DNA of 64,000 nucleotides, taken from NCBI RefSeq assembly GCF_003019035.1, contig NZ_CP027447.1; one strand, given 5' to 3'. Shown here piece by piece: positions 1 to 64,000 of the stretch; the first letter of the stretch is position 1; each line of letters begins with the position of its first letter. A program made the translations under genes and the position numbers. The notes under the pieces were generated by a model. That model ran no database searches, was not told where the DNA came from, and worked only from the letters and a program-made list of their open reading frames with translations. The stretch comes from Escherichia coli (lineage in GTDB: Bacteria; Pseudomonadota; Gammaproteobacteria; Enterobacterales; Enterobacteriaceae).

Positions 1-3000
1 CATTATTACTTCCGCGACTATCGACCCGGAACGCTTTTCGCGCCACTTTAATAATGCGCCGATTATCGAAGTCTCCGGTCGGACCTATCCGGTGGAAGTG
101 CGCTATCGCCCGATCGTTGAAGAAGCTGATGACACCGAGCGCGATCAGTTGCAGGCGATTTTTGACGCCGTAGACGAACTGAGCCAGGAAAGCCCTGGCG
201 ACATTCTGATCTTTATGAGCGGTGAGCGGGAAATTCGCGATACCGCCGATGCGCTGAACAAGCTAAATCTGCGGCATACCGAAATCTTGCCGCTTTATGC
301 GCGGCTTTCGAACAGCGAACAGAACCGCGTGTTCCAGTCGCACAGTGGACGGCGCATTGTGCTGGCGACCAACGTCGCGGAAACCTCGCTGACCGTACCG
401 GGTATTAAATACGTTATCGACCCCGGTACAGCGCGTATCAGCCGCTACAGCTATCGCACCAAAGTGCAGCGTTTGCCGATTGAACCCATTTCGCAGGCGT
501 CTGCCAATCAGCGTAAAGGCCGCTGTGGTCGTGTGTCCGAAGGGATCTGTATTCGTCTCTATTCCGAAGACGATTTCCTTTCGCGCCCGGAATTTACCGA
601 TCCGGAGATTCTGCGTACCAACCTGGCCTCGGTTATTTTGCAGATGACTGCGCTGGGGCTGGGCGATATCGCTGCGTTCCCGTTTGTTGAAGCACCGGAT
701 AAACGCAATATCCAGGATGGCGTGCGTCTGCTCGAAGAACTGGGCGCGATCACCACGGATGAACAGGCCAGCGCCTATAAACTGACGCCGCTCGGTCGCC
801 AGCTCTCGCAGTTGCCTGTCGACCCACGTCTGGCGCGTATGGTGCTGGAAGCGCAAAAACATGGCTGCGTGCGTGAGGCGATGATTATCACGTCCGCGCT
901 CTCCATTCAGGATCCGCGCGAGCGTCCGATGGATAAACAGCAGGCATCGGACGAAAAACATCGTCGCTTCCACGACAAAGAATCCGACTTCCTCGCGTTT
1001 GTAAATCTGTGGAATTATCTTGGCGAGCAGCAAAAGGCGCTTTCTTCCAACGCCTTCCGTCGCCTGTGTCGTACCGATTATCTCAACTATCTGCGCGTGC
1101 GCGAATGGCAGGATATCTACACCCAGTTGCGCCAGGTGGTGAAAGAACTTGGCATTCCGGTTAACAGCGAACCGGCGGAGTATCGTGAAATTCACATTGC
1201 GTTGCTGACGGGTTTACTTTCCCATATCGGCATGAAAGATGCCGATAAACAAGAATATACCGGCGCACGTAACGCGCGTTTCTCCATTTTCCCCGGTTCC
1301 GGCTTATTTAAAAAGCCGCCGAAATGGGTAATGGTGGCGGAACTGGTAGAAACCAGCCGCCTGTGGGGGCGCATTGCTGCGCGTATCGACCCGGAATGGG
1401 TAGAACCCGTTGCTCAGCATTTGATTAAACGCACCTACAGCGAACCGCACTGGGAACGGGCGCAGGGCGCGGTGATGGCAACGGAAAAAGTCACTGTTTA
1501 TGGTTTGCCGATTGTTGCTGCGCGCAAGGTCAACTACAGCCAGATCGATCCGGCGTTATGTCGTGAACTCTTTATTCGCCACGCTCTGGTGGAAGGTGAC
1601 TGGCAGACGCGTCACGCATTCTTCCGTGAAAACCTGAAACTGCGGGCCGAAGTGGAAGAGCTGGAACACAAATCACGTCGCCGCGATATTCTGGTTGATG
1701 ACGAAACGTTGTTTGAGTTCTACGACCAGCGCATCAGCCACGATGTAATCTCCGCTCGTCACTTCGACAGCTGGTGGAAAAAAGTCAGCCGCGAAACGCC
1801 TGATTTGCTCAACTTTGAAAAGAGCATGTTGATCAAAGAAGGGGCGGAAAAAATCAGCAAGCTGGATTATCCGAACTTCTGGCATCAGAGCAATCTCAAG
1901 CTGCGTTTGAGCTATCAGTTTGAGCCCGGCGCGGATGCTGACGGTGTGACTGTGCATATCCCGCTGCCGCTGCTTAATCAGGTAGAAGAGAGCGGGTTTG
2001 AATGGCAAATCCCCGGCCTGCGCCGCGAACTGGTGATTGCTCTGATTAAATCGTTGCCGAAACCGGTACGCCGTAATTTTGTACCTGCGCCAAACTATGC
2101 CGAAGCGTTTTTAGGCCGCGTCAAACCGCTGGAGTTACCGTTGCTCGACAGTCTTGAGCGCGAGTTACGGCGGATGACCGGTGTTACCGTTGACCGCGAA
2201 GACTGGCACTGGGATCAGGTGCCCGATCACCTGAAAATCACCTTCCGCGTGGTGGATGACAAAAACAAGAAGCTAAAAGAAGGGCGCTCTCTACAAGATC
2301 TGAAAGATGCGCTGAAAGGCAAAGTGCAGGAAACGCTGTCTGCGGTGGCGGATGACGGTATCGAGCAGAGCGGCTTACATATCTGGAGTTTTGGTCAGCT
2401 GCCGGAAAGCTACGAACAGAAGCGTGGTAACTACAAAGTGAAGGCGTGGCCGGCGCTGGTGGATGAACGCGACAGCGTGGCGATCAAACTGTTTGATAAT
2501 CCGCTGGAACAAAAGCAGGCAATGTGGAACGGTCTTCGCCGTCTACTGCTGCTGAATATTCCATCGCCGATCAAGTATTTGCATGAAAAGTTACCGAACA
2601 AAGCCAAGCTGGGGCTGTACTTTAACCCGTATGGCAAAGTGCTGGAGCTGATCGACGACTGTATCTCCTGCGGGGTGGATCAACTGATCGACGCCAATGG
2701 TGGCCCGGTCTGGACGGAAGAAGGCTTTGCTGCGCTGCATGAGAAAGTGCGTGCCGAACTGAACGACACGGTGGTGGATATTGCGAAGCAGGTCGAGCAA
2801 ATTCTTACGGCAGTGTTCAATATCAACAAACGTCTGAAAGGGCGGGTGGATATGACCATGGCGCTGGGGCTTTCTGACATTAAAGCGCAGATGGGCGGGC
2901 TGGTGTATCGCGGTTTTGTGACTGGTAACGGCTTCAAACGGTTGGGCGACACGCTGCGTTATTTGCAGGCGATTGAAAAACGACTGGAAAAACTGGCGGT

Positions 3001-3229
3001 TGATCCGCATCGTGACCGTGCTCAGATGCTGAAAGTCGAAAACGTCCAGCAGGCGTGGCAGCAATGGATCAACAAACTGCCGCCTGCACGTCGTGAGGAT
3101 GAAGACGTGAAAGAGATCCGCTGGATGATAGAAGAGCTGCGCGTCAGCTACTTCGCTCAACAACTTGGTACGCCTTATCCGATTTCGGATAAGCGTATTT
3201 TGCAGGCGATGGAGCAGATTAGCGGTTAA
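1..3229 (+). CDS. hrpA: ATP-dependent RNA helicase HrpA, C-terminal ~1045 codons; 5' end lies upstream of the window
   Basis: Open frame runs from the window edge to the stop at 3227-3229; translated sequence recognised as the HrpA C-terminal region; hairpin terminator follows. Confidence 0.9.
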   Translation, partial: IITSATIDPERFSRHFNNAPIIEVSGRTYPVEVRYRPIVEEADDTERDQLQAIFDAVDELSQESPGDILIFMSGEREIRDTADALNKLNLRHTEILPLYARLSNSEQNRVFQSHSGRRIVLATNVAETSLTVPGIKYVIDPGTARISRYSYRTKVQRLPIEPISQASANQRKGRCGRVSEGICIRLYSEDDFLSRPEFTDPEILRTNLASVILQMTALGLGDIAAFPFVEAPDKRNIQDGVRLLEELGAITTDEQASAYKLTPLGRQLSQLPVDPRLARMVLEAQKHGCVREAMIITSALSIQDPRERPMDKQQASDEKHRRFHDKESDFLAFVNLWNYLGEQQKALSSNAFRRLCRTDYLNYLRVREWQDIYTQLRQVVKELGIPVNSEPAEYREIHIALLTGLLSHIGMKDADKQEYTGARNARFSIFPGSGLFKKPPKWVMVAELVETSRLWGRIAARIDPEWVEPVAQHLIKRTYSEPHWERAQGAVMATEKVTVYGLPIVAARKVNYSQIDPALCRELFIRHALVEGDWQTRHAFFRENLKLRAEVEELEHKSRRRDILVDDETLFEFYDQRISHDVISARHFDSWWKKVSRETPDLLNFEKSMLIKEGAEKISKLDYPNFWHQSNLKLRLSYQFEPGADADGVTVHIPLPLLNQVEESGFEWQIPGLRRELVIALIKSLPKPVRRNFVPAPNYAEAFLGRVKPLELPLLDSLERELRRMTGVTVDREDWHWDQVPDHLKITFRVVDDKNKKLKEGRSLQDLKDALKGKVQETLSAVADDGIEQSGLHIWSFGQLPESYEQKRGNYKVKAWPALVDERDSVAIKLFDNPLEQKQAMWNGLRRLLLLNIPSPIKYLHEKLPNKAKLGLYFNPYGKVLELIDDCISCGVDQLIDANGGPVWTEEGFAALHEKVRAELNDTVVDIAKQVEQILTAVFNINKRLKGRVDMTMALGLSDIKAQMGGLVYRGFVTGNGFKRLGDTLRYLQAIEKRLEKLAVDPHRDRAQMLKVENVQQAWQQWINKLPPARREDEDVKEIRWMIEELRVSYFAQQLGTPYPISDKRILQAMEQISG

Positions 3230-3253
3230 CCCTGCTATTTGCCTGATAAATCT

Positions 3254-5977: not shown

Positions 5978-6979
5978 TCAGAGTTTAGCGAATTTTTCGA
6001 GGGTGCGAATGAGCTGTGTGACGAAGCCATATTCGTTATCGTACCAGGCGACCGTTTTCACCAGTTGTAAATCGCCCACGGCGGTAATTTCCGTTTGCGT
6101 GGCATCAAACACCGAACCGAAATGGCTGCCAATGATATCGGAAGAGACTATTTCTTCATCGGTATAACCAAATGACTCGTTATTGGTGGTTGCTTGTTTA
6201 AGTGCGTTATTCACCTCTTCGGCAGTCACTTTTTTTCCGAGAATGGACACCAGCTCAGTGACCGAACCTGTTTTCACCGGCACGCGTTGCGCATGACCTT
6301 TCAGTTTGCCGCTCAGTTCCGGGATCACCAGACCAATGGCTTTTGCCGCACCTGTAGTGTGGGGAATGATATTTTCTGCCGCTGCACGTGAAGCGCGTAG
6401 ATCTTTACCTCGCGGACCATCCACCAGTGACTGAGTGCCGGTATAGGCATGAATGGTCGTCATCGTGCCGACTTCTATTCCGAAACTGTCGTGCAAGGCT
6501 TTGGCCATCGGTGCAAGACAGTTAGTGGTGCATGACGCCACGGAAACAATGGTGTCGTTGCCATCCAGTGTGTCGTCATTGACGTTATAAACGATGGTTT
6601 TCATTTCACCGGCAGGGGCGGAAATCAACACCTTCTTCGCACCAGCATCAAGGTGCGCCTGCGATTTCTCGGCGGAGGTATAAAAGCCAGTACATTCGAC
6701 AATGATTTCTGCGCCTTTCGCTTTCCATGGAATATTTTTAGCCTCTTTTTCGGCGTAAACCGCGATACTTTTTCCATCAACGATAAGTGAATCTTCCGTA
6801 AAATCAACGCTCCAGGGGAACGGTCCGTAGTTTGAATCATGTTTCAACAGGTAGGCGAGAATTTTTGGGGAAGTGAGATCATTAATAGCAACAATGTCTA
6901 TGTTGCTTTTGACTTCAAGTAATCGACGCAACACCAGTCGACCGATACGACCAAAACCGTTAATACCAACTTTACTCAT
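5978..6979 (-). CDS. gapC: Glyceraldehyde-3-phosphate dehydrogenase C, intact 333-aa frame
   Basis: Uninterrupted 333-aa ORF with GAPDH motifs (NGFGRIGR N-terminus, SCTTNCLAP active-site Cys region). Confidence 0.9.
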
Positions 6980-7167: not shown

Positions 7168-7698
7168 ATGGAAAGTAAATATTCAAGGTTACAAATCGGC
7201 ATTCACTGGCTGGTCTTTTTGCTGGTTATCGCAGCGTATTGCGCAATGGAGTTTCGTGGTTTTTTCCCACGTGGCGATAGGCCGCTTATCAACATGATTC
7301 ATGTTTCCTGTGGCATCTCAATTCTCGTGCTGATGGTTGTTCGTCTTTTGTTAAGGCTTAAATACCCAACTCCGCCGATTGTACCTAAACCAAAACCGAT
7401 GATGACGGGACTGGCGCATTTGGGACATTTGGTGATCTATCTCCTGTTTATTGCGCTGCCAGTGATTGGTTTGGTGATGATGTATAACCGGGGCAACCCG
7501 TGGTCTGCGTTTGGTATGACAATGCCTTATGCAGCAGAGGCCAATTTCGAACGGGTTGATAGCTTAAAGTGGTGGCATGAGACGCTGGCGAATCTGGGAT
7601 ATTTTGTCATCGGGTTGCACGCTGCGGCTGCACTGGCACACCACTATTTCTGGAAGGACAACACACTTCTACGCATGATGCCGCGTAAACGTTCCTGA
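7168..7698 (+). CDS. cybB: Cytochrome b561
   Basis: ORF 7132-7698; internal Met at 7168 gives the 176-aa protein beginning MESKYSRLQ; multiple TM helices. Confidence 0.85.
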   Translation: MESKYSRLQIGIHWLVFLLVIAAYCAMEFRGFFPRGDRPLINMIHVSCGISILVLMVVRLLLRLKYPTPPIVPKPKPMMTGLAHLGHLVIYLLFIALPVIGLVMMYNRGNPWSAFGMTMPYAAEANFERVDSLKWWHETLANLGYFVIGLHAAAALAHHYFWKDNTLLRMMPRKRS

Positions 7699-7704
7699 AG
7701 GATC

Positions 7705-7772
7705 TTTAAAGAAAACGCCTGTACTAAAACCGACCCGCGGTACAGGCGAAGAGTACGGGCCTACATCGGAAG
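7705..7772 (-). ncRNA. rydC: Candidate small RNA RydC with its own minus-strand terminator
   Basis: Minus-strand sequence cttccgatgtaggcccgtactcttcgcctgtaccgcgggtcggttttagtacaggcg followed by a T-run; matches recalled RydC sequence and its position between cybB and ydcA. Confidence 0.5.
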
Positions 7773-7942
7773 CGCCTATTATATTTATTTGTATGACAAA
7801 TAAAACCATAATCCTTGTCCATATGTCCATCTGGCTTATCTTTAATCAATTCACACGATCTTTGATCTCATCAACAGTATCAAAATAAACCAGCGTATAA
7901 CGTTCAAATCGAACATAAGATTCGATAAACCATGGAGGTTAT

Positions 7943-8116
7943 ATGAAAAAACTGGCACTTATCTTGGTTATAGGAGCGCTTGTTTCCTTTTATGCCGATG
8001 CCGGGCGCAAACCCTGTTCTGGTTCGAAAGGGGGGATCTCACACTGTACGGCAGGCGGCAAATTTGTCTGTAATGATGGTTCTATTAGTGCATCGAAAAA
8101 AACATGCACTAACTGA
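7943..8116 (+). CDS. ydcA: Small secreted protein YdcA (57 aa, N-terminal signal peptide)
   Basis: ATG at 7943 preceded by ggagg; hydrophobic N-terminus MKKLALILVIGALVSFYADA; below the 60-aa ORF track cutoff. Confidence 0.75.
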   Translation: MKKLALILVIGALVSFYADAGRKPCSGSKGGISHCTAGGKFVCNDGSISASKKTCTN

Positions 8117-8187: not shown

Positions 8188-8347
<160 letters not shown>

Positions 8348-8735
8348 TTTGCCGGATGGCGGGTAAGAGGCTAAGATCTGAATTGCTAGGTTCATTCGTT
8401 GGCCTCGGTTGATAGAAATATCGGTCGGGGCCTTCGTCTTTCTGATTCCCGGTTAGCCTGAAAACAGAAAGTCTCAGGCACCCGTGAGCATCCTATGTGG
8501 TTTCCTTAGGGACGAAAATAATCACCTGACGAAATTGCGTGCTGTTTTCCAGAATTTTTCGTCATTCGGGTTAGCCGGTTTAGCCATTCGTTACTCTCTT
8601 CATTCCAATAGCATTAATTTTCTCTGCAATAATTGTTGTAAAAATGTGACGCAAAGAGGTTTTTGGTCATAAGTAATTACCGTCAAGTGCCGATGACTTT
8701 CTATCAGGAGTAAACCTGGACGAGAGACAACGGTA

Positions 8736-42803: not shown

Positions 42804-43623
42804 AAGGATAAATGGCGTTCTCTGTATTTATTCGCAATTATCTGTAGGACAAATATGGAGAGCTTGATGAGTCAGAGCTAAAACAGCAATTGATTAATAA
42901 ACATGTTGATTTATTCAAGAAAATGGATGTATTTTAAATATTGATTCTTAATATAACCTAATCAATAGATTATCACGTGAGAGCTGCACATTATTGGAGG
43001 GGCAGGGGAAAACACCATTTTGGGAACAATGCATCAGGTACTCTTACCACTGAAGCAAGATCATCCGGGCACCAGGTGGTGGTGCAGTGCTTTGGAAATG
43101 GTCCCCTCGGGGGAGTTGTCATTATTTTCTATGCTATTTGCTTATTATATTCATCAGGTGAATTTAATAAATTCCTAATTTGAAATATCCACTATTAAGC
43201 TAGTGTTTAACGACGTTAAGATGGCAATGTGCAGATCATGTTATCAGGGTGGGGCGGTAGCGTATATTCCTTATACAAACCATCATTCATTTCAATGATT
43301 GTTATTGAATTATTTATTGTTGTGAATAAAAAGACATTATGAATATTGGTTTGACTTTGCATATCAGGTTTTTTATTACTCGCTGTAATGTACGAGCCTG
43401 TCGTGAATAACGTCGAGAACCCATCCGTTGCGTTTGTGATTATTTTGTTGACTAAACAGACACCCGTTTCTCTGAAGTAAAATCCCAGACTAAATCATCA
43501 CATAACCATGACATTTTTCTGATATTCCCCGGTAACGCCAGATGTCGACTCGCTTATCTCATCCGCCCGACATGTTGTACATGCAATATGTGCGGATTAT
43601 TATTCATTTTCACGGAGGTTGCT

Positions 43624-49748: not shown

Positions 49749-50004
49749 CAGGGCGGGATCGTGAATATTGTGATGCATATCACATGAACTCCTGGTTTTA
49801 ACTTATTATTTCGGTTAAAATTTAACCACTGAAATCATTAGGATTCGAGCAAAGGGACGGCATATGGATATTCAAAATTTACTGGATTATATTTCTATAA
49901 TTCCTGATTATCGTCAGCAAGGGAAAATAAGGCATAAATTGTCAGATATTTTATTGCTCACTATATGTGCTATTATTGCCGGTTCTGATGAATGGGAGGA
50001 TATT
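49749..50004 (+). mobile_element. Truncated H-repeat variant (fragment D): left end plus first about 47 codons of transposase
   Basis: IR-like cagggcgggatcgtga at about 49749; ORF start 49864 ([48 protein letters not shown]) interrupted by the next element. Confidence 0.65.
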
Positions 50005-50593
50005 CAGGGCAAGATCATGAAAATCGTGATGTAAATCACAATTTTCAACCTGGCTTTAACTCCTTCAGGAGATTAAAATTTAACCTATGGAATAACTAAA
50101 AAGATAAAAAAGGACGCCAGATGAGTATTCAAAGTTTGCTTGATTATATTTCAGTGTTCCCTGATATACGACAACAAGGAAAGGTTAAACATAAATTATC
50201 TGATATTTTGTTTCTCACCGTATGTGCAGTAATTGCAGGTGCCGATGAGTGGCAGGAAATTGAAGATTTTGGACATGAAAGACTGGAATGGCTAAAGAAA
50301 TATGGTGATTTTGATAATGGCATTCCGGTCGATGACACCATTGCACGCGTTGTGAGTAACATTGACAGTTTGGCCTTTGAAAAGATGTTTATTGAATGGA
50401 TGCAGGAGTGCCATGAAATCACTGATGGTGAAATTATAGCAATAGATGGAAAGACCATAAGAGGCTCCTTTGATAAGGGAAAAAGGAAAGGAGCAATCCA
50501 TATGGTGAGTGCATTCTCGACTGAAAATGGTGTTGTACTGGGGCAGGTGAAAACGGAAGCCAAAAGTAATGAGATTACAGCCATTCCAGAGTT
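50005..50593 (+). mobile_element. Truncated H-repeat variant (fragment E) inserted into fragment D and itself cut by copy B
   Basis: Left end cagggcaagatca at 50005; transposase N-terminal 158 codons (ORF 50121..., diverged from copies A-C) ending where the copy B left IR starts at 50594. Confidence 0.7.
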
Positions 50594-51884
50594 CAGGGAA
50601 AGATCATCAGAAGTACACTTTTTGTACTAAACAATTCGCATTTTATGTTTAAAAATTGAGATATTCCTCATTACCTGAAGCTGTTTTTTATTGCTTATAC
50701 ATGATCAAATACTCCTTACATAATTAAGGAGAACAAAATGGAACTTAAAAAATTGATGGAACATATTTCTATTATCCCCGATTACAGACAAGCCTGGAAA
50801 GTGGAACATAAATTATCGGATATTCTACTGTTGACTATTTGTGCCGTTATTTCGGGTGCAGAAGGCTGGGAAGATATAGAGGATTTTGGGGAAACACATC
50901 TCGATTTTTTGAAGCAATATGGTGATTTTGATAATGGTATTCCTGTTCACGATACCATTGCCAGAGTTGTATCCTGTATCAGTCCTGCAAAATTTCACGA
51001 GTGCTTTATTAACTGGATGCGTGACTGCCATTCTTCAGATGATAAAGACGTCATCGCAATTGATGGAAAAACACTCCGGCATTCTTATGACAAGAGTCGC
51101 CGCAGGGGAGCGATTCATGTCATTAGTGCGTTCTCAACAATGCACAGTCTGGTCATCGGACAGATCAGGACGGATGAGAAATCCAATGAGATCACAGCTA
51201 TCCCTGAACTTCTTAACATGCTGGATATTAAAGGAAAAATTATCACAACTGATGCAATGGGTTGCCAGAAAGATATTGCAGAGAAGATACAAAAACAGGG
51301 CGGTGATTATTTATTCGCTGTAAAAGGAAATCAGGGTCGGCTAAATAAAGCCTTTGAGGAAAAATTCCCACTGAAAGAATTAAATAATCCAGAACATGAC
51401 AGTTACGCAATGAGTGAAAAGAGTCACGGCAGAGAAGAAATCCGTCTTCACATTGTTTGCGATGTCCCTGATGAACTTATTGATTTCACGTTTGAATGGA
51501 AAGGTCTGAAGAAATTATGCGTGGCAGTCTCCTTTCGGTCAATAATAGCAGAACAAAAGAAAGAGCCAGAAATGACGGTCAGATATTATATCAGTTCTGC
51601 TGATTTAACCGCAGAGAAGTTCGCCACAGCAATCCGAAACCACTGGCACGTGGAGAATAAGCTGCACTGGCGTCTGGACGTGGTAATGAATGAAGACGAC
51701 TGCAAAATAAGAAGAGGAAACGCCGCAGAATTATTTTCAGGGATACGGCACATCGCTATTAATATTTTGACGAATGATAAGGTATTCAAGGCAGGGTTAA
51801 GACGTAAGATGCGAAAAGCTGCCATGGACAGAAACTATCTCGCGTCAGTCCTTGCGGGGAGCGGGCTTTCGTAATCTTGCCCTG
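50594..51884 (+). mobile_element. H-repeat (ISAs1-family) element, copy B, 1291 bp
   Basis: Same IRs and length as copy A. Confidence 0.85.
50738..51874 (+). CDS. ISAs1-family transposase (H repeat-associated protein)
   Basis: 378-aa ORF, a few substitutions relative to copy A. Confidence 0.88.
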
Positions 51885-51896
51885 CTTTGTAATGGT

Positions 51897-52079
51897 ATGG
51901 CAGGAGGATATGAATTTGCAGTAAGTAAATTTGGTCAGTCGGCCTATGATGCCGCACAGGAAAAAGCATTAAATAACTATATGGAATTTGAAATGTTAGA
52001 TTTATTACAAAGCATGGGAGAGAATGTCAATCCAGATGAATATAAGCAGGCGCATGATAGAGTTGTTAATCCAAATTGA
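51897..52079 (+). CDS. Small ORF (60 aa) starting just outside the copy B right end; possibly the 3' remnant of a toxin tip
   Basis: ORF 51852-52079 begins inside the IS right end; first ATG outside the IS at 51897 (MAGGYEFAVSKFG...); stop overlaps the next gene. Confidence 0.35.
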   Translation: MAGGYEFAVSKFGQSAYDAAQEKALNNYMEFEMLDLLQSMGENVNPDEYKQAHDRVVNPN

Positions 52080-52093
52080 ATGCAGAGGGGAGT

Positions 52094-52657
52094 ATGTTAT
52101 TAAAACTGATAATGTTATTTTCAATATTTTTTATCCCGTTTTTGGCAGGTTGCAGTATGTTTGATGATGTTTTTGAGAAAAACTACTCATTGAGTTCTGT
52201 CGCCAGTTTTCCAGATGACGTTGATGAATTAAAAGAAATATGGTTTTTTTGTGAAAGATGTTTAAGTGATGAGCAGTGCGAAAATCATGACATTAAACAA
52301 TGTAGAGATGTAACTATTCCCGGTAGAGATGAAGCATTAAGTAAAGCTGTAGGCAGAGCCAATGTCGAAGCTGTTTACTTTCTTGTTGATGTGGCAAAAA
52401 CTGATGTCAATGGTATTACAGGTAAATATAAGGAAACACCATTAATTATTGCTGCATATTATGGAACTCAAGCACATCAGGATATAGCTGAATTTTTGCT
52501 ATTGCATGGGGCAGATATTAATAAAACTTACCCAGCCATTGGGCGAAATCCTCTAGGTGTCGCCAGATGGAAGCATAATGTCGATTTCGTTAATTTTCTA
52601 CTGAAGCATGGTGCTGAACCAGCAGTACATATGGGGTCGATTGAGAATAAAGAGTGA
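52094..52657 (+). CDS. Ankyrin-repeat lipoprotein (candidate immunity protein)
   Basis: ORF 52076-52657; ATG at 52094 preceded by gagggga; lipobox FLAGC; ankyrin-like repeats (TPLIIAAYYGTQAHQDIAEFLLLHGADIN, NPLGVARWKHNVDFVNFLLKHGAEP). Confidence 0.7.
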   Translation: MLLKLIMLFSIFFIPFLAGCSMFDDVFEKNYSLSSVASFPDDVDELKEIWFFCERCLSDEQCENHDIKQCRDVTIPGRDEALSKAVGRANVEAVYFLVDVAKTDVNGITGKYKETPLIIAAYYGTQAHQDIAEFLLLHGADINKTYPAIGRNPLGVARWKHNVDFVNFLLKHGAEPAVHMGSIENKE

Positions 52658-53100
52658 GATTTAACAAAAATGCAATTCATGCTCTCGCCTTGGGTGACGG
52701 TATTGATACTGCTTTTAAGTGTTCAGGAAAAATGGAAAGTGGTAAACCCTTAAAATCTTCGGGCAAATGGGATTACTCTGTTGGTGGGACAAATGGTGCC
52801 TTTCTTTATCTTAAAGACTATTCAAATATTTTGACGGCTGGCCACACAGGAAATCTGGCAGTTACTTTTCTTGGAAGTTACAATGCTCAATATTCAATAA
52901 ACGGAAACTCTCTGGATGTAGTTGTAACAAATTCTTCAACGATACAATCAGCGACACATCCCCCAATCCTGGAGTATACAAAATGGTGGCAGGATAATAT
53001 TGGTAATCCTTTGGATAGAAAATTTCAAAAAGGTCCCACGTCCCCAAAAACACAAACCATAAATTTACACTTTGATTTGTCATGTGCGTGCAAAAAATGA
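52654..53100 (+). CDS. Hypothetical protein, translationally coupled to flanking genes
   Basis: GTG at 52654 overlaps the upstream stop; alternative ATG at 52732; stop overlaps the downstream ATG (atga) at 53097. Confidence 0.5.
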   Translation: MRFNKNAIHALALGDGIDTAFKCSGKMESGKPLKSSGKWDYSVGGTNGAFLYLKDYSNILTAGHTGNLAVTFLGSYNAQYSINGNSLDVVVTNSSTIQSATHPPILEYTKWWQDNIGNPLDRKFQKGPTSPKTQTINLHFDLSCACKK

Positions 53101-53480
53101 AAATTTTATTTATGTTATTATTAATTATCTTGAGTGGATGTGATGGCGAAAATGATGCCAAATTTGTTGGGCAATGGCTTGCTGATATTGATGGTGATAT
53201 AAAATCAGAATTGATCGTGAAGGCAAATGGAATTTTTTATTTCAAGAATATGCCTATGGAGACAGTTTGTCGCGAGGATAAAACATATAAGGCTAATTTT
53301 TTCGGGGATTGGACTATTAATATTGACAATAGGATTGATATTTCAATGGATAATGTTAATTCTGAACGGTGTAATATTCCATCCTCGTATTTAATTAATG
53401 GGTTTTATGATGGTGGATATTTTTTATGTCAGAAAGGATTGTCTTTTTTCCAGACGGACCTGATGAGCCAGGTAATATGA
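53097..53480 (+). CDS. Small lipoprotein (candidate immunity protein)
   Basis: ORF 53082-53480; ATG at 53097 (MKILFMLLLIILSGCDGEND) with lipobox LSGC; AT-rich. Confidence 0.6.
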   Translation: MKILFMLLLIILSGCDGENDAKFVGQWLADIDGDIKSELIVKANGIFYFKNMPMETVCREDKTYKANFFGDWTINIDNRIDISMDNVNSERCNIPSSYLINGFYDGGYFLCQKGLSFFQTDLMSQVI

Positions 53481-53549
53481 TCATTTATATTAAACAATGA
53501 AAGTATTGATCGTGAGCAGATTAAATATATAAGAAATTAAGGAGATACC

Positions 53550-56500
53550 ATGAGCGGAAAACCCGCGGCACGCCAGGGTGATGCCACGCTGAAAGGCGGT
53601 CCGATAGTCCAGGGGTCAGCGGGGGTGCTGATAGGCGCGCCCACCGGCGTGGCGTGCTCGGTGTGTCCGGGCGGGATGACTTCGGGCAACCCGGTAAATC
53701 CGCTGCTGGGGGCGAAGGTGCTGCCCGGCGAGACGGACCTTGCCCTGCCCGGCCCGCTGCCGTTCATTCTCTCCCGCACCTACAGCAGCTACCGGACGAG
53801 GACGCCTGCCCCGGTGGGCGTTTTCGGCCCCGGCTGGAAAGCGCCTTCGGATATCCGCTTACAGCTACGTGATGACGCACTGATACTCAACGACAACGGC
53901 GGGCGGAGCATTCACTTTGAGCCGCTGCTGCCGGGGGAGGCGGTGTACAGCCGCAGCGAGTCAATGTGGCTGGTGCGCGGTGGTAAGGCAGCGCAGCCGG
54001 ACGGCCACACGCTGGCGCGACTGTGGGGGGCGCTGCCGCCGGATATCCGGTTAAGCCCGCATCTTTACCTGGCGACCAACAGCGCACAGGGGCCGTGGTG
54101 GATACTCGGCTGGTCAGAGCGGGTGCCGGGTACTGAGGACGTACTGCCAGCGCCGCTGCCGCCGTACCGGGTGCTTACCGGGCTGGCGGACCGCTTCGGG
54201 CAGACGCTGACGTACCGGCGTGAGGCCGCCGGTGACCTGGCCGGGGAAATCACCGGCGTGACGGACGGTGCCGGGCGGAAGTTCCGTCTGGTGCTGACCA
54301 CGCAGGCGCAGCGTGCGGAAGAGGCCCGCACCTCTTCGCTATCTTCTTCTGACCGTTCCCGCCCTCTCTCAGCCTCAGCGTTCCCCGACACACTGCCCGG
54401 TACGGAATACGGCCCCGACAGGGGCATCCGTCTTTCGGCGGTGTGGCTGATGCACGACCCGGCATACCCGGAAAGCCTGCCCGGTGCGCCACTGGCGCGG
54501 TACACGTATACGGAAGCCGGTGAACTGCTGGCGGTATATGACCGCAGCAATACGCAGGTGCGCGCTTTCACGTATGACGCGCAGCACCCGGGCCGGATGG
54601 TGGCGCACCGTTACGCGGGAAGGCCGGAGATGCGCTACCGCTACGACGATACGGGGCGGGTGGTGGAGCAACTGAACCCGGCAGGGTTAAGCTACCGCTA
54701 TCTTTATGAGCAGGACCGCATCACCATCACGGACAGCCTGAACCGGCGAGAGGTGCTGCATACAGAAGGCGGGGCCGGGCTGAAGCGGGTGGTGAAAAAA
54801 GAACTGGCGGACGGCAGCGTCACGCACAGCGGGTATGACGCGGCAGGAAGGCTCACGGCACAGACGGACGCGGCGGGACGGCAGACAGAGTACGGTCTGA
54901 ATGTGGTGTCAGGCGATATCACGGACATCACCACGCCGGACGGGCGGGAGACGAAATTTTACTATAACGACGGGAACCAGGTGACGGCAGTGGTGTCCCC
55001 GGACGGGCTGGAGAGCCGCCGGGCGTATGATGAGCGGGACAGGCTGGTAACGGAGACATCGCGCAGTGGGGACGTCATCCGGTATGCTTATGATAATCCG
55101 CACAGTGAATTACCGGCCACGACAACAGATGCGACGGGCAGCACCCGGCAGATGACCTGGAGCCGCTACGGGCAGTTGCTGGCGTTCACCGACTGCTCGG
55201 GCTACCAGACCCGCTATGAATACGACCGCTTCGGCCAGATGACGGCGGTCCACCGCGAGGAAGGCATCAGCCTTTACCGCCGCTATGACAACCGTGGCCG
55301 GTTAACCTCGGTGAAAGACGCACAGGCCCGTGAAACGCAGTATGAGTACAACGCCGCAGGCGACCTGACTGCCGTTATCACCCCGGATGGCAACCGGAGT
55401 GAGACACAGTACGATGGGTGGGGAAAGGCCATCAGCACCACGCAGGGCGGGCTGACGCGCAGTATGGAGTACGATGCTGCCGGACGTATCACCACGCTGA
55501 CTAACGAGAACGGCAGCCACAGCGACTTTAGTTACGATGCGCTGGACCGCCTGATACAGCAGGGCGGCTTTGACGGGCGGACGCAACGTTATCATTATGA
55601 CCTGACCGGAAAACTCACGCAGAGTGAAGATGAGGGGCTTGTCATCCTCTGGTACTACGATGAATCGGACCGTATTACTCACCGCACGGTAAACGGTGAA
55701 CCGGCAGAACAGTGGCGGTATGACGGCCACGGCTGGCTGAGAGAAATCAGCCACCTGAGCGAAGGCCACCGTGTTGCCGTCCACTATGGCTATGATAATA
55801 AAGGCCGCCTGACCAGTGAGCGCCAGACGGTGCATCACCCGGAGACGGGAGAGCTGCTCTGGCAGCATGAGACCGGACATGCGTACAACGAACAGGGGCT
55901 GGCAAACCGCGTCACGCCGGACAGTCTGCCGCCGGTGGAGTGGCTGACCTATGGTAGCGGTTATCTGGCAGGCATGAAGCTGGGCGGGACGCCGCTGCTG
56001 GAGTTCACGCGCGACCGCCTGCACCGTGAGACGGTGCGCAGCTTCGGCAGCATGGCAGGCAGTAATGCCGCATACGAACTGACCAGCACATACACCCCTG
56101 CAGGCCAGTTACAGAGTCAGCACCTGAACAGCCTGGTGTATGACCGTGACTACGGGTGGAATGACAACGGAGACCTGGTGCGCATCAGCGGCCCGCGACA
56201 GACGCGGGAATACGGCTACAGCGCCACGGGCAGGCTGGAGAGTGTGCGCACCCTCGCACCGGACCTGGACATCCGCATCCCGTATGCCACGGACCCGGCG
56301 GGCAACCGGCTGCCGGACCCGGAGCTGCACCCGGACAGTACACTCACAGTGTGGCCGGATAACCGCATCGCGGAGGATGCGCACTATGTCTACCGCCACG
56401 ATGAATACGGCAGGCTGACGGAGAAGACGGACCGCATCCCGGCGGGTGTGATACGGACGGACGACGAGCGGACCCACCACTACCACTACGACAGCCAGCA

Positions 56501-57803
56501 CCGCCTGGTGTTCTACACGCGGATACAGCATGGCGAGCCACTGGTCGAGAGCCGCTACGTCTACGACCCGCAGGGACGGCGAATGGCGAAACGGGTATGG
56601 CGGCGGGAGCGTGACCTGACGGGGTGGATGTCGCTGTCGCGTAAACCGGAGGTGACGTGGTACGGCTGGGACGGCGACCACCTGACGACGGTGCAGACCG
56701 ACAGCACACGTATCCAGACGGTATACGAGCCGGGAAGCTTCACACCGCTCATCCGCATCGAAACAGACAACGGCGAGCGGGAGAAAACGCAGCGGCGGAG
56801 CCTGGCGGAGAAGCTCCAGCAGGAAGGGAGCGAGGACGGACACGGTGTGGTGTTCCCGGCTGAACTGGTGAGGATGCTGGACAGGCTGGAGGAAGAAATC
56901 CGGGCAGACCGCGTGAGCGGTGAAAGCCGGACGTGGCTTGCACAGTGCGGGCTGGCGGTGGAGCAACTGGAAAAACAGGTGGAGCCGGAATACACGCCGG
57001 AACGCACACTGCATCTTTACCACTGCGACCACCGGGGACTGCCGCTGGCGCTTATCAGCGAAGACGGCAATACGGTGTGGAGCGCGGAGTATGATGAATG
57101 GGGAAACCTGCTTAATGAGGAGAACCCGCATCATGTGTATCAGTCATACCGTCTGCCGGGGCAGCAGCATGATGAGGAGTCGGGGCTGTATTATAACCGG
57201 AACCGGTACTATGACCCGCTACAGGGGAGGTATATCACCCAGGATCCAATCGGGCTAAGAGGTGAATGGAATCTGTATAAATATCCATTAAACCCTGTTC
57301 GGTTTATAGATTCTTTGGGTTTAAAATTCCATGTTAACGGTGATCCAAGTGATTTTAATCAGGCTGTTGAGTATTTAAAACAAGATTCACGAATGAAAGA
57401 AGCTATAGATTTTTTATCAAGCTCTGAAGAAACCATAAAGATAGAGTATATTGATGAAACCGACGTTAGATTTGACCCGGATAAAATGACTATATATTGG
57501 AATGGTAAGGCGGCTTTATTTTGTTCAACTGATTTAAAATCGAAATCACAATCACCTGCATTAGGTTTGGGGCATGAGTTTGCTCATGCGCACTTATATC
57601 TTATTGATAAGGATGGTTATATGGGGCTTGTGAGACGTGCGGATGAACAATATAAAAATAAAGAAGAGGCGAGAGTTATCACTTTAATTGAACAGCATGC
57701 GGCGAAAACTTTAGGTGAGTGTACCAGAACAGCATATAATGGAGTGTATTATCGTGTGAATACACCAACGCAGACGGCAACAATAAATGGCACGCCAGAA
57801 TAG
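53550..57803 (+). CDS. rhs: Full-length Rhs polymorphic toxin: PAAR-like N-terminus, YD-repeat shell, DPxGL autoproteolysis motif, C-terminal HExxH-containing toxin tip
   Basis: 1417-aa ORF with SD aaggag; N-terminal [11 protein letters not shown]...CSVCPGG; RHS/YD repeats; PxxxxDPIGL at 57243-57257; C-terminal about 180 aa contain [11 protein letters not shown]. Confidence 0.92.
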
Positions 57804-57815
57804 TGAGATTTTTTT

Positions 57816-58265
57816 ATGATGAAATATTTGATGGTTTTATTGTCTCTATTTTCTGCTTCGGTATTGGGGATGGGGCGAGTGAATGAATTGTGTGGAATAG
57901 ATAGTGTGAAAACGATAGAAATAATTAATCTTCCAGCATATGTTACCACCTTAACCCCGCTTAGCAAGGAAGGTCTCAAGAGAATATACAAACATAAAGT
58001 GGTGGTGAATGGAGTTAGCGATTTTTATGCTGGTGAGATAATTGATTTATTGCAAATGAAGTATTTCAGGAAGGAGGAGAATAACGATATAAGATGGGGG
58101 GTTGACATTGTTTCGAATAAAAATAATAAATGTGAAATTTATTTTGATGGTTTTGGTGAATGTGGAAGTGTGAATGGCATTAACGTATGTTTTGAAAAAA
58201 ATGAAATGATAGATTGGATTAAAAAAGAAATCCCTTTTCTGTCGCAAGAAATAGGTGGTCTTTAA
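57816..58265 (+). CDS. Putative cognate immunity protein with N-terminal signal peptide
   Basis: 149-aa ORF 12 nt downstream of the rhs stop; hydrophobic N-terminus MMKYLMVLLSLFSASVLG; AT-rich. Confidence 0.7.
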   Translation: MMKYLMVLLSLFSASVLGMGRVNELCGIDSVKTIEIINLPAYVTTLTPLSKEGLKRIYKHKVVVNGVSDFYAGEIIDLLQMKYFRKEENNDIRWGVDIVSNKNNKCEIYFDGFGECGSVNGINVCFEKNEMIDWIKKEIPFLSQEIGGL

Positions 58266-58322
58266 ATGGTAGGGCAATATTCAAAGACAGTATAGGTAAC
58301 TATTTGTATGGACATGTAAGGT

Positions 58323-58372
58323 CAGGGAAAGATCACGTAACGCTGCTCAGGGAAAGATCACGTAACGCTGCT
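58323..58372 (+). repeat. Perfect 25-bp tandem duplication of the H-repeat left terminus
   Basis: cagggaaagatcacgtaacgctgct occurs twice in direct tandem (58323-58347 and 58348-58372); measured from the second unit the element is 1291 bp, the same as copies A and B. Confidence 0.85.
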
Positions 58373-59638
58373 TTTTTGTACTAAACAATCCGCATTTTAT
58401 GTTTAAAAATTGAGATATTCCTCATTACCTAAAGCTGTTTTTTATTGCTTATACATGATCAAATACTCCTTACATAATTAAGGAGAACAAAATGGAACTT
58501 AAAAAATTGATGGAACATATTTCTATTATCCCCGATTACAGACAAGCCTGGAAAGTGGAACATAAATTATCGGATATTCTACTGTTGACTATTTGTGCCG
58601 TTATTTCGGGTGCAGAAGGCTGGGAAGATATAGAGGATTTTGGGGAAACACATCTCGATTTTTTGAAGCAATATGGTGATTTTGATAATGGTATTCCTGT
58701 TCACGATACCATTGCCAGAGTTGTATCCTGTATCAGTCCTGCAAAATTTCACGAGTGCTTTATTAACTGGATGCGTGACTGCCATTCTTCAGATGATAAA
58801 GACGTCATCGCAATTGATGGAAAAACACTCCGGCATTCTTATGACAAGAGTCGCCGCAGGGGAGCGATTCATGTCATTAGTGCGTTCTCAACAATGCACA
58901 GTCTGGTCATCGGACAGATCAGGACGGATGAGAAATCCAATGAGATCACAGCTATCCCTGAACTTCTTAACATGCTGGATATTAAAGGAAAAATTATCAC
59001 AACTGATGCAATGGGTTGCCAGAAAGATATTGCAGAGAAGATACAAAAACAGGGCGGTGATTATTTATTCGCTGTAAAAGGAAACCAGGGGCGGCTAAAT
59101 AAAGCCTTCGAGGAAAAATTTCCGCTGAAAGAATTAAATAATCCAGAGCATGACAGTTACGCAATGAGTGAAAAGAGTCACGGCAGAGAAGAAATCCGTC
59201 TTCACATTTTTTGCGATGTCCCTGATGAACTTATTGATTTCACGTTTGAATGGAAAGGTCTGAAGAAATTATGCGTGGCAGTCTCCTTTCGGTCAATAAT
59301 AGCAGAACAAAAGAAAGAGCCAGAAATGACGGTCAGATATTATATCAGTTCTGCTGATTTAACCGCAGAGAAGTTCGCCACAGCAATCCGAAACCACTGG
59401 CACGTGGAGAATAAGCTGCACTGGCGTCTGGACGTGGTAATGAATGAAGACGACTGCAAAATAAGAAGAGGAAATGCAGCAGAATTATTTTCAGGGATAC
59501 GGCACATCGCTATTAATATTTTGACGAATGATAAGGTATTCAAGGCAGGGTTAAGACGTAAGATGCGAAAAGCAGCCATGGACAGAAACTATCTGGCGTC
59601 AGTCCTTGCGGGGAGCGGGCTTTCGTAATCTTTCCCTG
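58348..59638 (+). mobile_element. H-repeat (ISAs1-family) element, copy C, 1291 bp
   Basis: Same terminal IRs; internal bases 14-25 differ from copies A and B (cgtaacgctgct versus tcagaagtacac). Confidence 0.85.
58492..59628 (+). CDS. ydcC: ISAs1-family transposase (H repeat-associated protein, ydcC-equivalent position)
   Basis: 378-aa ORF; position before yddH corresponds to ydcC of reference strains. Confidence 0.8.
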
Positions 59639-59744
59639 TTTGTTTATATAAATGCCAAGATATTCTTTCTCAAAATATTGACTTCAGATTAACCGTGTTC
59701 CACGCAAACAATTTTCAAACATTCATCAATAGATAAGGAATTCC

Positions 59745-60212
59745 ATGTTTATACGACCAGTCAAACCTTCAGATGTTGAACCATTACTGGATATGCTGCT
59801 TGCCAGTGGACAATTTGATCAAGATGGCCTTCATCATGTACAAAAAACACTAACACATTATTTCTCAGGTCAATCTGCCGATTTATGGTTTAGTGCAGAA
59901 CACTTAGGACTGGCAGGGATTGCCTATTGCGCTCCTGAAGTGATGACAAATGATGTCTGGAATTTATTAATGCTCTGGATCAGTCCTTCCCATCAGCGCC
60001 AGGGAGTGGGACATCTGCTGATTAACGAAATAGAAAAAGAGCTCACAATTAAACAGGCAAGACTACTTTTAGTAGAGACCTCCAGCCATATCGATTTTAG
60101 TGCCGCCCGCGCATTTTATACAAAACAGGGCTTTATCAATGAAGCTATAATACGCAATTACTATGATGTTGGTGAGGATAAATTAATCTTCACTAAGAAT
60201 ATACAATCGTGA
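59745..60212 (+). CDS. GNAT-family N-acetyltransferase
   Basis: 155-aa ORF; acetyl-CoA binding motif QRQGVGHLL; sits where a 77-aa tautomerase gene (pptA) is expected from recalled reference gene order. Confidence 0.7.
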   Translation: MFIRPVKPSDVEPLLDMLLASGQFDQDGLHHVQKTLTHYFSGQSADLWFSAEHLGLAGIAYCAPEVMTNDVWNLLMLWISPSHQRQGVGHLLINEIEKELTIKQARLLLVETSSHIDFSAARAFYTKQGFINEAIIRNYYDVGEDKLIFTKNIQS

Positions 60213-60277
60213 AATAAAATGTGCTTTTAACTCATATGGAAACATTGCTTAAAAAACCGGTCGCTGCATATGATTCT

Positions 60278-60847
60278 TTAGCCCGCGGTGACTCGCTTCC
60301 CGCTGGTAACAAACGTGCCAGCGCCTAAATGATGCAACGTATTGAGCTTATCATCATCAAACTGCCAGCGGCCTTCGACAAATACCCGTGCGTCTGCCGC
60401 TGCTGATACCACTTCGCCAAACAGCGTGTCGTATTTCTCTTGCGCGGAAGTCGCTGGTAGCAATCGGCACTCCATCCACGCCAGACATTTCTCTTCAACA
60501 AGTGGCAAACCAAGCACCGGACCTTCCACCACCGGAATGCCATAGCAATTAAATTTATCCTCTTCACGCCCAGATACACTTCCCACTGCCCACGTCCAGT
60601 TAGTCGCTGCAACGCCTGGGATAACGATGCCAAATTTACCGTTACGCTCAATCAACTCCCTGGTCCATGTCGACTTATCTACCACAATCGCCACGCGTGG
60701 CGGTTCAAACTCTACGGGCATAGACCAGGCTGCTGCCATCACATTACGTCGCTGTGATTTTTCATCAAAAGTTGTTATCAAAACTGTGGGGCCGTGGTTT
60801 AACAGACGGCTGGCATGGTGTAATTCGACGGGAATGAATTGGCTCAC
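60278..60847 (-). CDS. yddH: Flavin reductase-like protein
   Basis: 189-aa ORF; flavin reductase-like fold; synteny next to nhoA. Confidence 0.85.
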   Translation of the reverse strand: MSQFIPVELHHASRLLNHGPTVLITTFDEKSQRRNVMAAAWSMPVEFEPPRVAIVVDKSTWTRELIERNGKFGIVIPGVAATNWTWAVGSVSGREEDKFNCYGIPVVEGPVLGLPLVEEKCLAWMECRLLPATSAQEKYDTLFGEVVSAAADARVFVEGRWQFDDDKLNTLHHLGAGTFVTSGKRVTAG

Positions 60848-61021
60848 GATATCGCCTCGCTATGAAGGGTGTTTTAAAAGCGTAGCTCGTAACGCAATAA
60901 GTAACGAAATTAACGGGATTGGCGATTTGCGAACGTGATGCATGTCCGCGATCGCACAAAATAGCCGGTGCGGCGTCTATTCCAGGTTATAAGTTGAGAA
61001 AACCACTAAGGGAAACGCCTG

Positions 61022-61867
61022 ATGACGCCCATTCTGAATCATTATTTTGCCCGTATTAACTGGTCGGGAGCTGCTGCGGTCAATATTGATACGCTGCGTG
61101 CATTGCACCTGAAACACAATTGCACTATTCCGTTTGAAAACCTCGACGTTTTGCTGCCGAGGGAAATACAGCTTGATGATCAATCGCTGGAAGAGAAACT
61201 GGTGATAGCCCGTCGTGGCGGTTACTGTTTTGAGCAGAATGGCGTGTTTGAGCGGGTGTTATGCGAGCTGGGGTTTAACGTTCGCAGCTTGTTAGGGCGC
61301 GTAGTGTTATCAAATCCGCCAGCATTACCGCCGCGCACCCATCGTTTGCTGTTGGTGGAACTGGAAGGGGAAAAATGGATTGCTGATGTCGGCTTCGGTG
61401 GGCAGACGCTAACCGCGCCGATTCGTTTAGTTCCCGATCTCGTGCAGTTCACGCCACACGGAGAGTATCGGTTGTTACAGGAGGGTGATGATTGGGTGTT
61501 GCAGTTTAATCATCATCAGCACTGGCAGTCGATGTACCGTTTTGATCTCTGCGAGCAGCAACAAAGCGATTATGTGATGGGCAATTTCTGGTCGGCGCAC
61601 TGGCCGCAGTCGCATTTTCGCCATCATTTGCTGATGTGTCGCCATTTGCCGGACGGTGGCAAGCTAACGCTGACCAATTTTCATTTTACCCATTATGAAA
61701 ATGGGCACGCAGTTGAGCAGCGAAATCTACCAGATGTGGCGTCGTTATATGCCGTGATGCAGGAACAGTTTGGTCTGGGCATGGATGATGTGAAACATGG
61801 CTTTACTGTGGATGAGTTAGCGCTGGTGATGGCGGCGTTTGATACGCACCCGGAGGCGGGAAAATAA
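61022..61867 (+). CDS. nhoA: Arylamine N-acetyltransferase (N-hydroxyarylamine O-acetyltransferase)
   Basis: 281-aa ORF; catalytic Cys in RRGGYCFEQN. Confidence 0.92.
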   Translation: MTPILNHYFARINWSGAAAVNIDTLRALHLKHNCTIPFENLDVLLPREIQLDDQSLEEKLVIARRGGYCFEQNGVFERVLCELGFNVRSLLGRVVLSNPPALPPRTHRLLLVELEGEKWIADVGFGGQTLTAPIRLVPDLVQFTPHGEYRLLQEGDDWVLQFNHHQHWQSMYRFDLCEQQQSDYVMGNFWSAHWPQSHFRHHLLMCRHLPDGGKLTLTNFHFTHYENGHAVEQRNLPDVASLYAVMQEQFGLGMDDVKHGFTVDELALVMAAFDTHPEAGK

Positions 61868-61880
61868 TTTATGTCAGGTT

Positions 61881-61985
<105 letters not shown>

Positions 61986-62014
61986 GCCAGACACAGCGCC
62001 GTCAGGCGCTGTTG

Positions 62015-63238
<1,224 letters not shown>

Positions 63239-63241
63239 GTT

Positions 63242-64000
63242 TCAGAGTTCAATTGCCCATTCGGCATGAAACAAAATCACCGCCGTGCCAGAAATGGTGA
63301 CTTTCTCCGGTTGGTTATCGCGAATTGTCACCGTCACTTCAATTACGCCGTCACGCCCTAATGCGCGCCCCTGATGGCCTTTAACATGCAACACGTTGCC
63401 ATCGTGGGGCAATACGTTGTGATGTACCAACCATGCACCCATCGGGCCATTGGCATTGCCAGTCACCGGATCTTCCACAATACCAATCGCAGGCGAGAAC
63501 ATGCGACCATCGGTTTCGTTTTTGCCTGGGCGGATCTGGAACGGGAAGAAACCATTGCAGCCAATCTGTTTGCTGATTGTGGTCAGCGCAGCAAGGTCAG
63601 GCGAAAGGGCGTCGATATCCACTTCCGGCTTCAGTGGAATCATCACTTTTGAGTGTCCTGTGGTAGCCACCTGGATTGGCAAGCCTTGCAAAATATCGTC
63701 TTCAGTGAGATGAAGCGCGTTGATAATCGCTGCACGTGTTTCACCTTTCAGCGGTGGCTCAAAGCCTGGAGTACCTTGTTCCAGCGAAATACGATAATCA
63801 TCATTTTGCTTTTCGATAGTCACACGATGTTTTCCTGCCAGCGACGTTTGCCAGACGGTGCAATTTCCTAAACCTAACACCTTTGCACGTACATAGTGCG
63901 CAGCTACTGTCGCGTGACCACAAATCGGAACTTCAACCGTTGGCGTAAAGTAGCGGATGCGCACATCGCTGTCGTCGCTGTGCAGCAGAAAAGCAGTTTC
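63242..64000 (-). CDS. yddE: PhzF-family isomerase-like protein, C-terminal 240 codons; 5' end beyond the window
   Basis: Open minus-strand frame to the window edge; PhzF/DapF-like fold motifs. Confidence 0.85.
   Translation of the reverse strand, partial: ETAFLLHSDDSDVRIRYFTPTVEVPICGHATVAAHYVRAKVLGLGNCTVWQTSLAGKHRVTIEKQNDDYRISLEQGTPGFEPPLKGETRAAIINALHLTEDDILQGLPIQVATTGHSKVMIPLKPEVDIDALSPDLAALTTISKQIGCNGFFPFQIRPGKNETDGRMFSPAIGIVEDPVTGNANGPMGAWLVHHNVLPHDGNVLHVKGHQGRALGRDGVIEVTVTIRDNQPEKVTISGTAVILFHAEWAIEL

Follow-up and report, generated by a model that had tools for sequence, protein, structure and literature searches.

The rydC small RNA gene of an Escherichia coli strain: a conserved pseudoknot beside cybB with a putative YieP operator in its promoter

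Introduction

The small RNA RydC has been known for about twenty years (Antal et al., 2005, as cited), and its crystal structure with Hfq, its targets and its repressor have all been described. In the published model RydC is an H-type pseudoknot that exposes its 5' seed (PMC4337610, PMC3985669), and its hairpin and U-tail serve at once as Rho-independent terminator and as the binding site for the proximal face of Hfq (PMC4337610). Hfq binding and Hfq-dependent stability are known for both the K-12 and the Salmonella RNAs (PMC4337610). Other Hfq-dependent small RNAs with a 5' seed activate by mRNA stabilisation or anti-termination, but their sequences are unrelated, and RydC stands out as a compact pseudoknot that incorporates its own terminator stem.

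The published RydC target site on the cfa mRNA lies at -108 to -99, where the C5:G-101 pair has been validated by compensatory mutations and where RydC binding reportedly covers an RNase E site (10.1101/271551). The other cfa regulators ArrS, GadF and CpxQ likewise depend on Hfq and pair in the long cfa 5' UTR, although they are unrelated to RydC in sequence, and the ArrS site overlaps the RydC site (10.1101/271551). Regulation of yejABEF, csgD, pheA and trpE by RydC has been reported in the literature as well; for csgD, the effect reported in PMC3985669 is reduced expression. The rydC gene is itself under control of YieP, which represses it 20-fold in E. coli and 7.5-fold in Salmonella (PMC11340327), and rydC and ydcA are among the candidate YieP target operons in combined ChIP-exo and RNA-seq data (PMC7642389). 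The 2024 study that reports the repression names no operator in the rydC promoter (PMC11340327). FnrS and OmrB have been described in the literature as inputs to RydC regulation, and FnrS is known to lower YieP synthesis.

Identity of the segment

The window analysed here is a 64,000-nucleotide stretch of DNA from an E. coli strain, in which a first-pass annotation had proposed a minus-strand RydC gene, convergent with cybB, at 7705-7772. When the whole 64 kb window was scanned at the gathering threshold against all 4227 Rfam families, two matches were returned. One of these is a full-length match to RydC (RF00505; model positions 1-64 of 64, window 7772->7709 on the minus strand), which scores 83.1 bits against a gathering score of 48, some 35 bits over the curated threshold, with E = 1.1e-14. 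This covariance-model search, which the first-pass annotation had itself recommended and in which a missing match was to count against RydC, puts the minus-strand RNA gene where it had been proposed and agrees exactly with the 5' end given for it, 7772. The proposed 3' end at 7705 runs 3-4 nt too far, into AAAG, and is corrected to 7709 (Rfam) or 7708 (K-12 annotation). Read directly from positions 7700-7800, the reverse complement of the plus strand from 7772 to 7709 is CUUCCGAUGUAGGCCCGUACUCUUCGCCUGUACCGCGGGUCGGUUUUAGUACAGGCGUUUUCUU, and position p of the RNA corresponds to window coordinate 7773-p. The features discussed below are collected in Table 1.

Table 1. Features of the rydC locus in window coordinates; nt denotes positions in the RydC RNA
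Feature	Position	Strand	Basis or remark
cybB (cytochrome b561 / superoxide oxidase)	7168..7698	+	ORF list; RefSeq annotation of the identical stretch; K-12 annotation
RydC small RNA	7709..7772	-	64 nt by Rfam; K-12 annotation maps to 7708-7772 (65 nt)
U-rich 3' tail UUUUCUUU, nt 58-65	7708..7715	-	Sequence; terminator U-tract
Stem 2, 3' strand, nt 49-57 GUACAGGCG	7716..7724	-	Inverted repeat; also 3' half of the terminator stem
Stem 1, 3' strand, nt 35-41 GCGGGUC	7732..7738	-	Rfam consensus structure and alignment test
Stem 2, 5' strand, nt 25-33 CGCCUGUAC	7740..7748	-	Inverted repeat; also 5' half of the terminator stem
Stem 1, 5' strand, nt 12-18 GGCCCGU	7755..7761	-	Pairs with nt 35-41; helix of the Rfam consensus structure
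Single-stranded 5' seed CUUCCGAUGUAG, nt 1-12	7761..7772	-	Invariant in 13/13 orthologues
Sigma-70 -10 box TATAAT	7778..7783	-	5 nt upstream of the +1 C at 7772; invariant in 13 orthologues
Palindrome TTTATTTGT-CAT-ACAAATAAA	7784..7804	.	Fills the promoter spacer; 9-nt arms 100% complementary, 3-nt spacer
Palindrome core ATTTGTATGACAAAT	7787-7801	read on +	Putative operator of YieP (GntR/FadR-type repressor)
ydcA (57-aa predicted secreted protein)	7943..8116	+	Divergent from rydC; ORF list, RefSeq, K-12

By alignment, the segment occupies the position orthologous to the ncRNA gene rydC (b4597) of K-12 MG1655, which is annotated between cybB and ydcA. Common to both are the locus (cybB, rydC, ydcA), the length, the 5' seed, the two pseudoknot stems, the U-tail and the TATAAT promoter. 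The convergence with cybB holds as well: the cybB stop codon is at 7696-7698, leaving 9-10 nt to the 3' end of RydC. Salmonella RydC, the RNA that was crystallised with E. coli Hfq (PMC4337610), has the seed, the stem 1 sequence, the UU steps and the architecture found here, but differs in having three inner stem 2 pairs swapped (CGU/ACG, against UAC/GUA in the window), two additional loop nucleotides and another 5' neighbour gene.

Orthology with K-12 rydC, covariation in the pseudoknot, a conserved promoter with its YieP box, an intact seed and the complementarity of that seed to cfa together support the RydC interpretation, and we hold it as almost certain that the segment is the rydC gene of an E. 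coli strain. Its elements all agree with the literature, and nothing in the sequence argues against the identification. What the window holds is thus a known small RNA at its known locus, in a minor lineage-specific allele, and existing knowledge explains it in full; beyond correct annotation the finding matters little.

Pseudoknot and competing folds

The first-pass annotation had also suggested that the RNA can form a pseudoknot, and this is borne out by an alignment of 13 orthologues (12 distinct rows) from three related genera, Escherichia, Salmonella and Citrobacter. Across the pseudoknot, 98.5% of alignment cells form a standard pair, and the covariation score of 0.280 lies above those of all 500 shuffles (0.158 ± 0.019; 0/500 reach it). 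Pairing drops to 27-43% when the 3' partners are slid by 1-3 columns. Stem 2 is paired in 100% of cells and carries compensatory double changes at four of its nine pairs (G-C to A-U, U-A to C-G, A-U to G-C and C-G to U-A), while stem 1 is nearly invariant, with 96.9% of cells paired and with A-U to G-U and U-A to U-G as its sole changes.

The nested minimum free energy fold of the 64 nt (ViennaRNA) is an extended hairpin with swapped partners, unlike the published structure. Its z-score of -1.03 is unremarkable, as is expected for an RNA that is a pseudoknot, and since ViennaRNA cannot represent pseudoknots the nested fold was dropped as a test. On the same alignment this rival fold is paired in 82% of cells, and its covariation is no better than that of shuffles, 329 of 500 of which reach its score. 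The comparative evidence thus favours the pseudoknot and lends nothing to the nested fold. The transcript would fold as an H-type pseudoknot (nt 12-18 with 35-41; nt 25-33 with 49-57), and its invariant 5' end, CUUCCGAUGU, would be left single-stranded. RydC is also quasi-symmetric, and the extended hairpin can form by an exchange of partners, in which stem 2 lends its 5' strand to the 3' strand of stem 1 while the 5' strand of stem 1 together with loop 1 pairs with the 3' strand of stem 2.

The sequence in the window is identical to K-12 RydC at 61 of 64 bases and differs by A13G, U20C and A35G. Exactly this allele is found in 55 of the 5415 E. coli genomes with a match, and the rest differ from it by one to a few bases. 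Of the substitutions, two lie in stem 1, where each replaces a Watson-Crick pair by a G·U pair; they are the same two changes, A-U to G-U and U-A to U-G, that the stem 1 alignment contains, so the allele preserves pairing.

This allele raises an alternative reading, namely that the gene is RydC by descent but has been functionally weakened by the combination of G13, C20 and G35, with two wobbles in stem 1 and a stabilised competing hairpin. The allele is indeed a minority one, and A13G and U20C each add a G-C pair to the extended hairpin, so that the best nested alternative reaches -18.7 kcal/mol, against -14.4 for K-12, and the probability of stem 2 (the terminator stem) within the nested ensemble falls from ~0.7 to 0.01. 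Both stem changes nevertheless keep a standard pair and barely alter the stacking of stem 1 (-16.8 kcal/mol, against -17.1 for K-12), G13 is also present in E. albertii and in another Escherichia species, and the seed, the UU steps, the tail, the promoter and the operator are all intact. The alternative fold is without covariation support, as described above. We also made a crude estimate for the pseudoknot as the sum of the stem stacking energies plus a penalty of 9.6 kcal/mol, the value used for pseudoknots in the Dirks-Pierce model. At ~-24 kcal/mol the pseudoknot is still the lowest, although its margin over the nested fold is narrowed in this allele. We therefore consider a functional weakening of the gene to be very unlikely. 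It is improbable too, though a little less so, that the allele, which accounts for ~1% of complete E. coli genomes, shifts folding from the pseudoknot towards the extended hairpin with swapped partners and thereby alters how efficiently the RNA terminates, how long it lasts or how far it depends on Hfq, and with that the level at which this lineage sets its cfa activation.

Termination and Hfq contacts

The strong intrinsic terminator that had been proposed for the 3' end of RydC is real, in that a 9-bp stem is followed by a U-rich tail, but it is atypical: its loop is 15 nt long, and its stem is stem 2 of the pseudoknot. That stem is a perfect inverted repeat, CGCCUGUAC/GUACAGGCG, and the 15 nt between the arms hold the 3' strand of stem 1. 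Taken as a hairpin it has a free energy of -13.8 kcal/mol, and UUUUCUUU follows it. A simple terminator scan with a loop limit of 8 nt left the rydC terminator unreported because the 15-nt loop exceeds that limit, and its silence does not indicate absence. The UU steps at nt 23-24 and 45-46, together with the U-tail, are invariant in the 13-sequence alignment and correspond to the Hfq contacts described in the literature (PMC4337610). A transcript of 64-65 nt would be expected to end at UUUUCUUU after the GC-rich 9-bp stem, and Hfq would hold its U-tail and the UU steps of both loops, as the published work indicates for RydC.

The same hairpin, with its U and A tracts, might instead be read as the terminator of cybB alone, possibly a bidirectional one, with no independent small RNA at the site. 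The stem does lie only 18 nt past the cybB stop codon, and RNA from the plus strand can form the same 9 bp. On the plus strand, however, the stem is followed by AAGAGUACGG and not by a U-tract, and the scan reports no plus-strand terminator there; we rejected a bidirectional cybB terminator on the lack of this U-tract. A terminator of cybB would leave unexplained the invariant 10-nt 5' seed, the TATAAT and YieP box on the minus strand, stem 1 and the Rfam match over 64 positions, and the gene at this place in K-12 is an annotated and experimentally studied small RNA. In our view this reading is scarcely credible. Less credible still is that the region encodes a small protein: a 53-codon minus-strand ORF (7669-7830) that spans the segment exists mechanically, but its ATG comes before the conserved -10 box and the operator, it runs antisense into the end of the cybB coding sequence, the substitutions in the segment are compensatory for RNA pairing, and we rejected a 53-aa coding sequence on the 1-nt indels of the orthologues (+1 and +1 in Salmonella, -1 in Citrobacter), which break any frame.

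Promoter and a candidate YieP operator

For the RydC gene itself, transcription would start from the C at 7772 under a sigma-70 promoter that has a perfect TATAAT and lacks a -35 box. Inspection of the sequence upstream of rydC revealed no recognisable -35 box, and the published rydC promoter has the same perfect -10 with the -35 missing (PMC11340327). A simple promoter scan, in which four of six matches are demanded in each hexamer, returned nothing at rydC; with the -35 box missing, this result reflects the rules of the scan and not the absence of a promoter.

The block between the -10 box and the expected position of the -35 is taken up by the palindrome listed in Table 1. Both the -10 box and the palindrome are kept in Escherichia, Salmonella and Citrobacter, whereas the sequence just upstream diverges. 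The core of the palindrome, ATTTGTATGACAAAT, agrees at 15/15 positions with the YieP motif from ChIP-exo, atTTGTaTGAcaAAT (PMC7642389), and it is the sole exact match to that motif in the 64 kb window. On the strength of this motif identity and conservation, and of the published YieP repression and candidate target status, we infer that 7787-7801 is a YieP operator, which may block RNA polymerase by occupying the spacer. YieP bound there would keep rydC almost silent until relieved. An exact YieP consensus in the spacer offers a simple explanation, at the level of sequence, of why the 2024 study saw such strong repression by YieP.

The operator in K-12 is ATTTATCATACAAAT, which differs from the perfect palindrome ATTTGTCATACAAAT found here by one change at a low-information position of the motif. 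Like the window strain, most of the Escherichia and Salmonella loci compared carry the perfect box; it reads ATTTATCATACAAAT in K-12 and in E. coli E69, and ATTCATCATACAAAT in Citrobacter sp. Awk 4. Such natural operator variants might tune the degree of repression by YieP. Elsewhere in the window the next-best match to the motif is ATCTGTAGGACAAAT, at 42840-42854 on the plus strand, with two mismatches; on the SCU-301 map it sits just past the 3' end of yncH and ~0.7 kb upstream of a vgrG/tssI pseudogene. Three more matches, each with three mismatches, cluster at 1996-3251. In total the window has seven matches with three or fewer mismatches, against 2.7 expected, and this excess of weaker matches is probably due to chance.

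Seed and the cfa target

The conserved seed CUUCCGAUGU is identical here and lies outside both stems. In a duplex prediction, nt 3-12 of RydC make ten contiguous pairs with the 5' UTR of the cfa mRNA at -99 to -108. The longer duplex formed by nt 1-16, which contains these pairs, has an energy of -18.4 kcal/mol; shuffled seeds give -12.6 ± 2.2, with 11 of 500 reaching the RydC value. In the cfa UTR of E. coli SCU-301 the RydC site is identical, and one distant base of the UTR differs; more generally, 5424 of 5426 genomes keep the 70 nt of cfa that surround the site at 95% identity or more.

We infer from these features that the gene operates in this particular strain as it does elsewhere. Consider, for example, a cell in which repression by YieP has been relieved and RydC has accumulated on Hfq. 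The exposed seed would pair with mRNAs, the best characterised of which is the long isoform of cfa, at -108 to -99. By the literature, this pairing would mask the RNase E site and counter Rho-dependent termination, and the expected outcome is more cyclopropane fatty acid synthase and greater acid resistance.

Distribution and annotation

Of the 5426 complete E. coli genomes, 5415 have a single match to the 64-nt RydC query; five of the matches sit in records that carry a plasmid label. No feature is annotated at the RydC site in any of the 30 RefSeq records listed (30/30) or in the SCU-301 feature table, and K-12 MG1655 alone lists rydC. RefSeq/PGAP thus omits rydC in the non-K-12 E. coli records inspected, which makes a scan that recovers the gene a useful piece of annotation work.

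To test the pseudoknot independently of RNA similarity, 80 loci anchored on the CybB protein were fetched from the Enterobacteriaceae, one genome per species, and RydC was located in them by single-sequence nhmmer and a purpose-built covariance model. It lies beside cybB in five Escherichia, two Salmonella and four Citrobacter loci, with C. amalonaticus having it 1.7 kb from cybB. Within 2.5 kb of cybB, RydC was not found in the Enterobacter, Klebsiella, Leclercia, Lelliottia, Kluyvera, Raoultella and C. freundii-group loci of this cybB-anchored set, and weaker matches (18 bits or less, E of at least 0.047) were discarded as chance. In Klebsiella, rydC resides at a different locus, between ecr and yebY (PMC11340327). 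The negative loci therefore do not mean that the gene is absent from Klebsiella or Enterobacter, and the ecr-yebY copy, set against the position beside cybB elsewhere, indicates that rydC has moved between genera.

Genomic context

The gene order around the segment is aldA, gapC, cybB (+), RydC (-), ydcA (+), yncP, hokB and trg. The surrounding 1.6 kb are 100% identical to E. coli SCU-301 and GF131 and have at least 95% identity to nearly all of the 5426 complete E. coli genomes, and window positions 1-49974 are collinear with SCU-301 at 99.94% identity. The gapC gene (5978-6979, minus strand) is an intact ORF for a 333-aa glyceraldehyde-3-phosphate dehydrogenase; it is a normal CDS in SCU-301 and a pseudogene (b4493) in K-12.

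The second Rfam match in the window, to the family named 'sok antitoxin (CssrC)' (RF01794, 109 bits), covers 8332-8483 on the minus strand, the strand of hokB (8188-8337). The 3' end of the match aligns to the AUGAAG start of hokB, and the match thus marks the leader of the hokB/mokB mRNA in sense orientation. The K-12 SokB antisense RNA maps to the opposite strand, at ~8385-8441 (+), and the name and strand of the RF01794 match do not fit the antitoxin RNA itself.

Collinearity with SCU-301 stops at ~49975. Further on, two segments, 50597-51882 and 58373-59636, correspond to the ISAs1 transposase/Rhs region of SCU-301 (97.6-98.1% identity), and 55994-57255 corresponds to the Rhs pseudogene next to that region (93.3%). 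This arrangement suggests that positions 49975-64000 of the window are a rearranged island of Rhs, T6SS-remnant and IS sequences.
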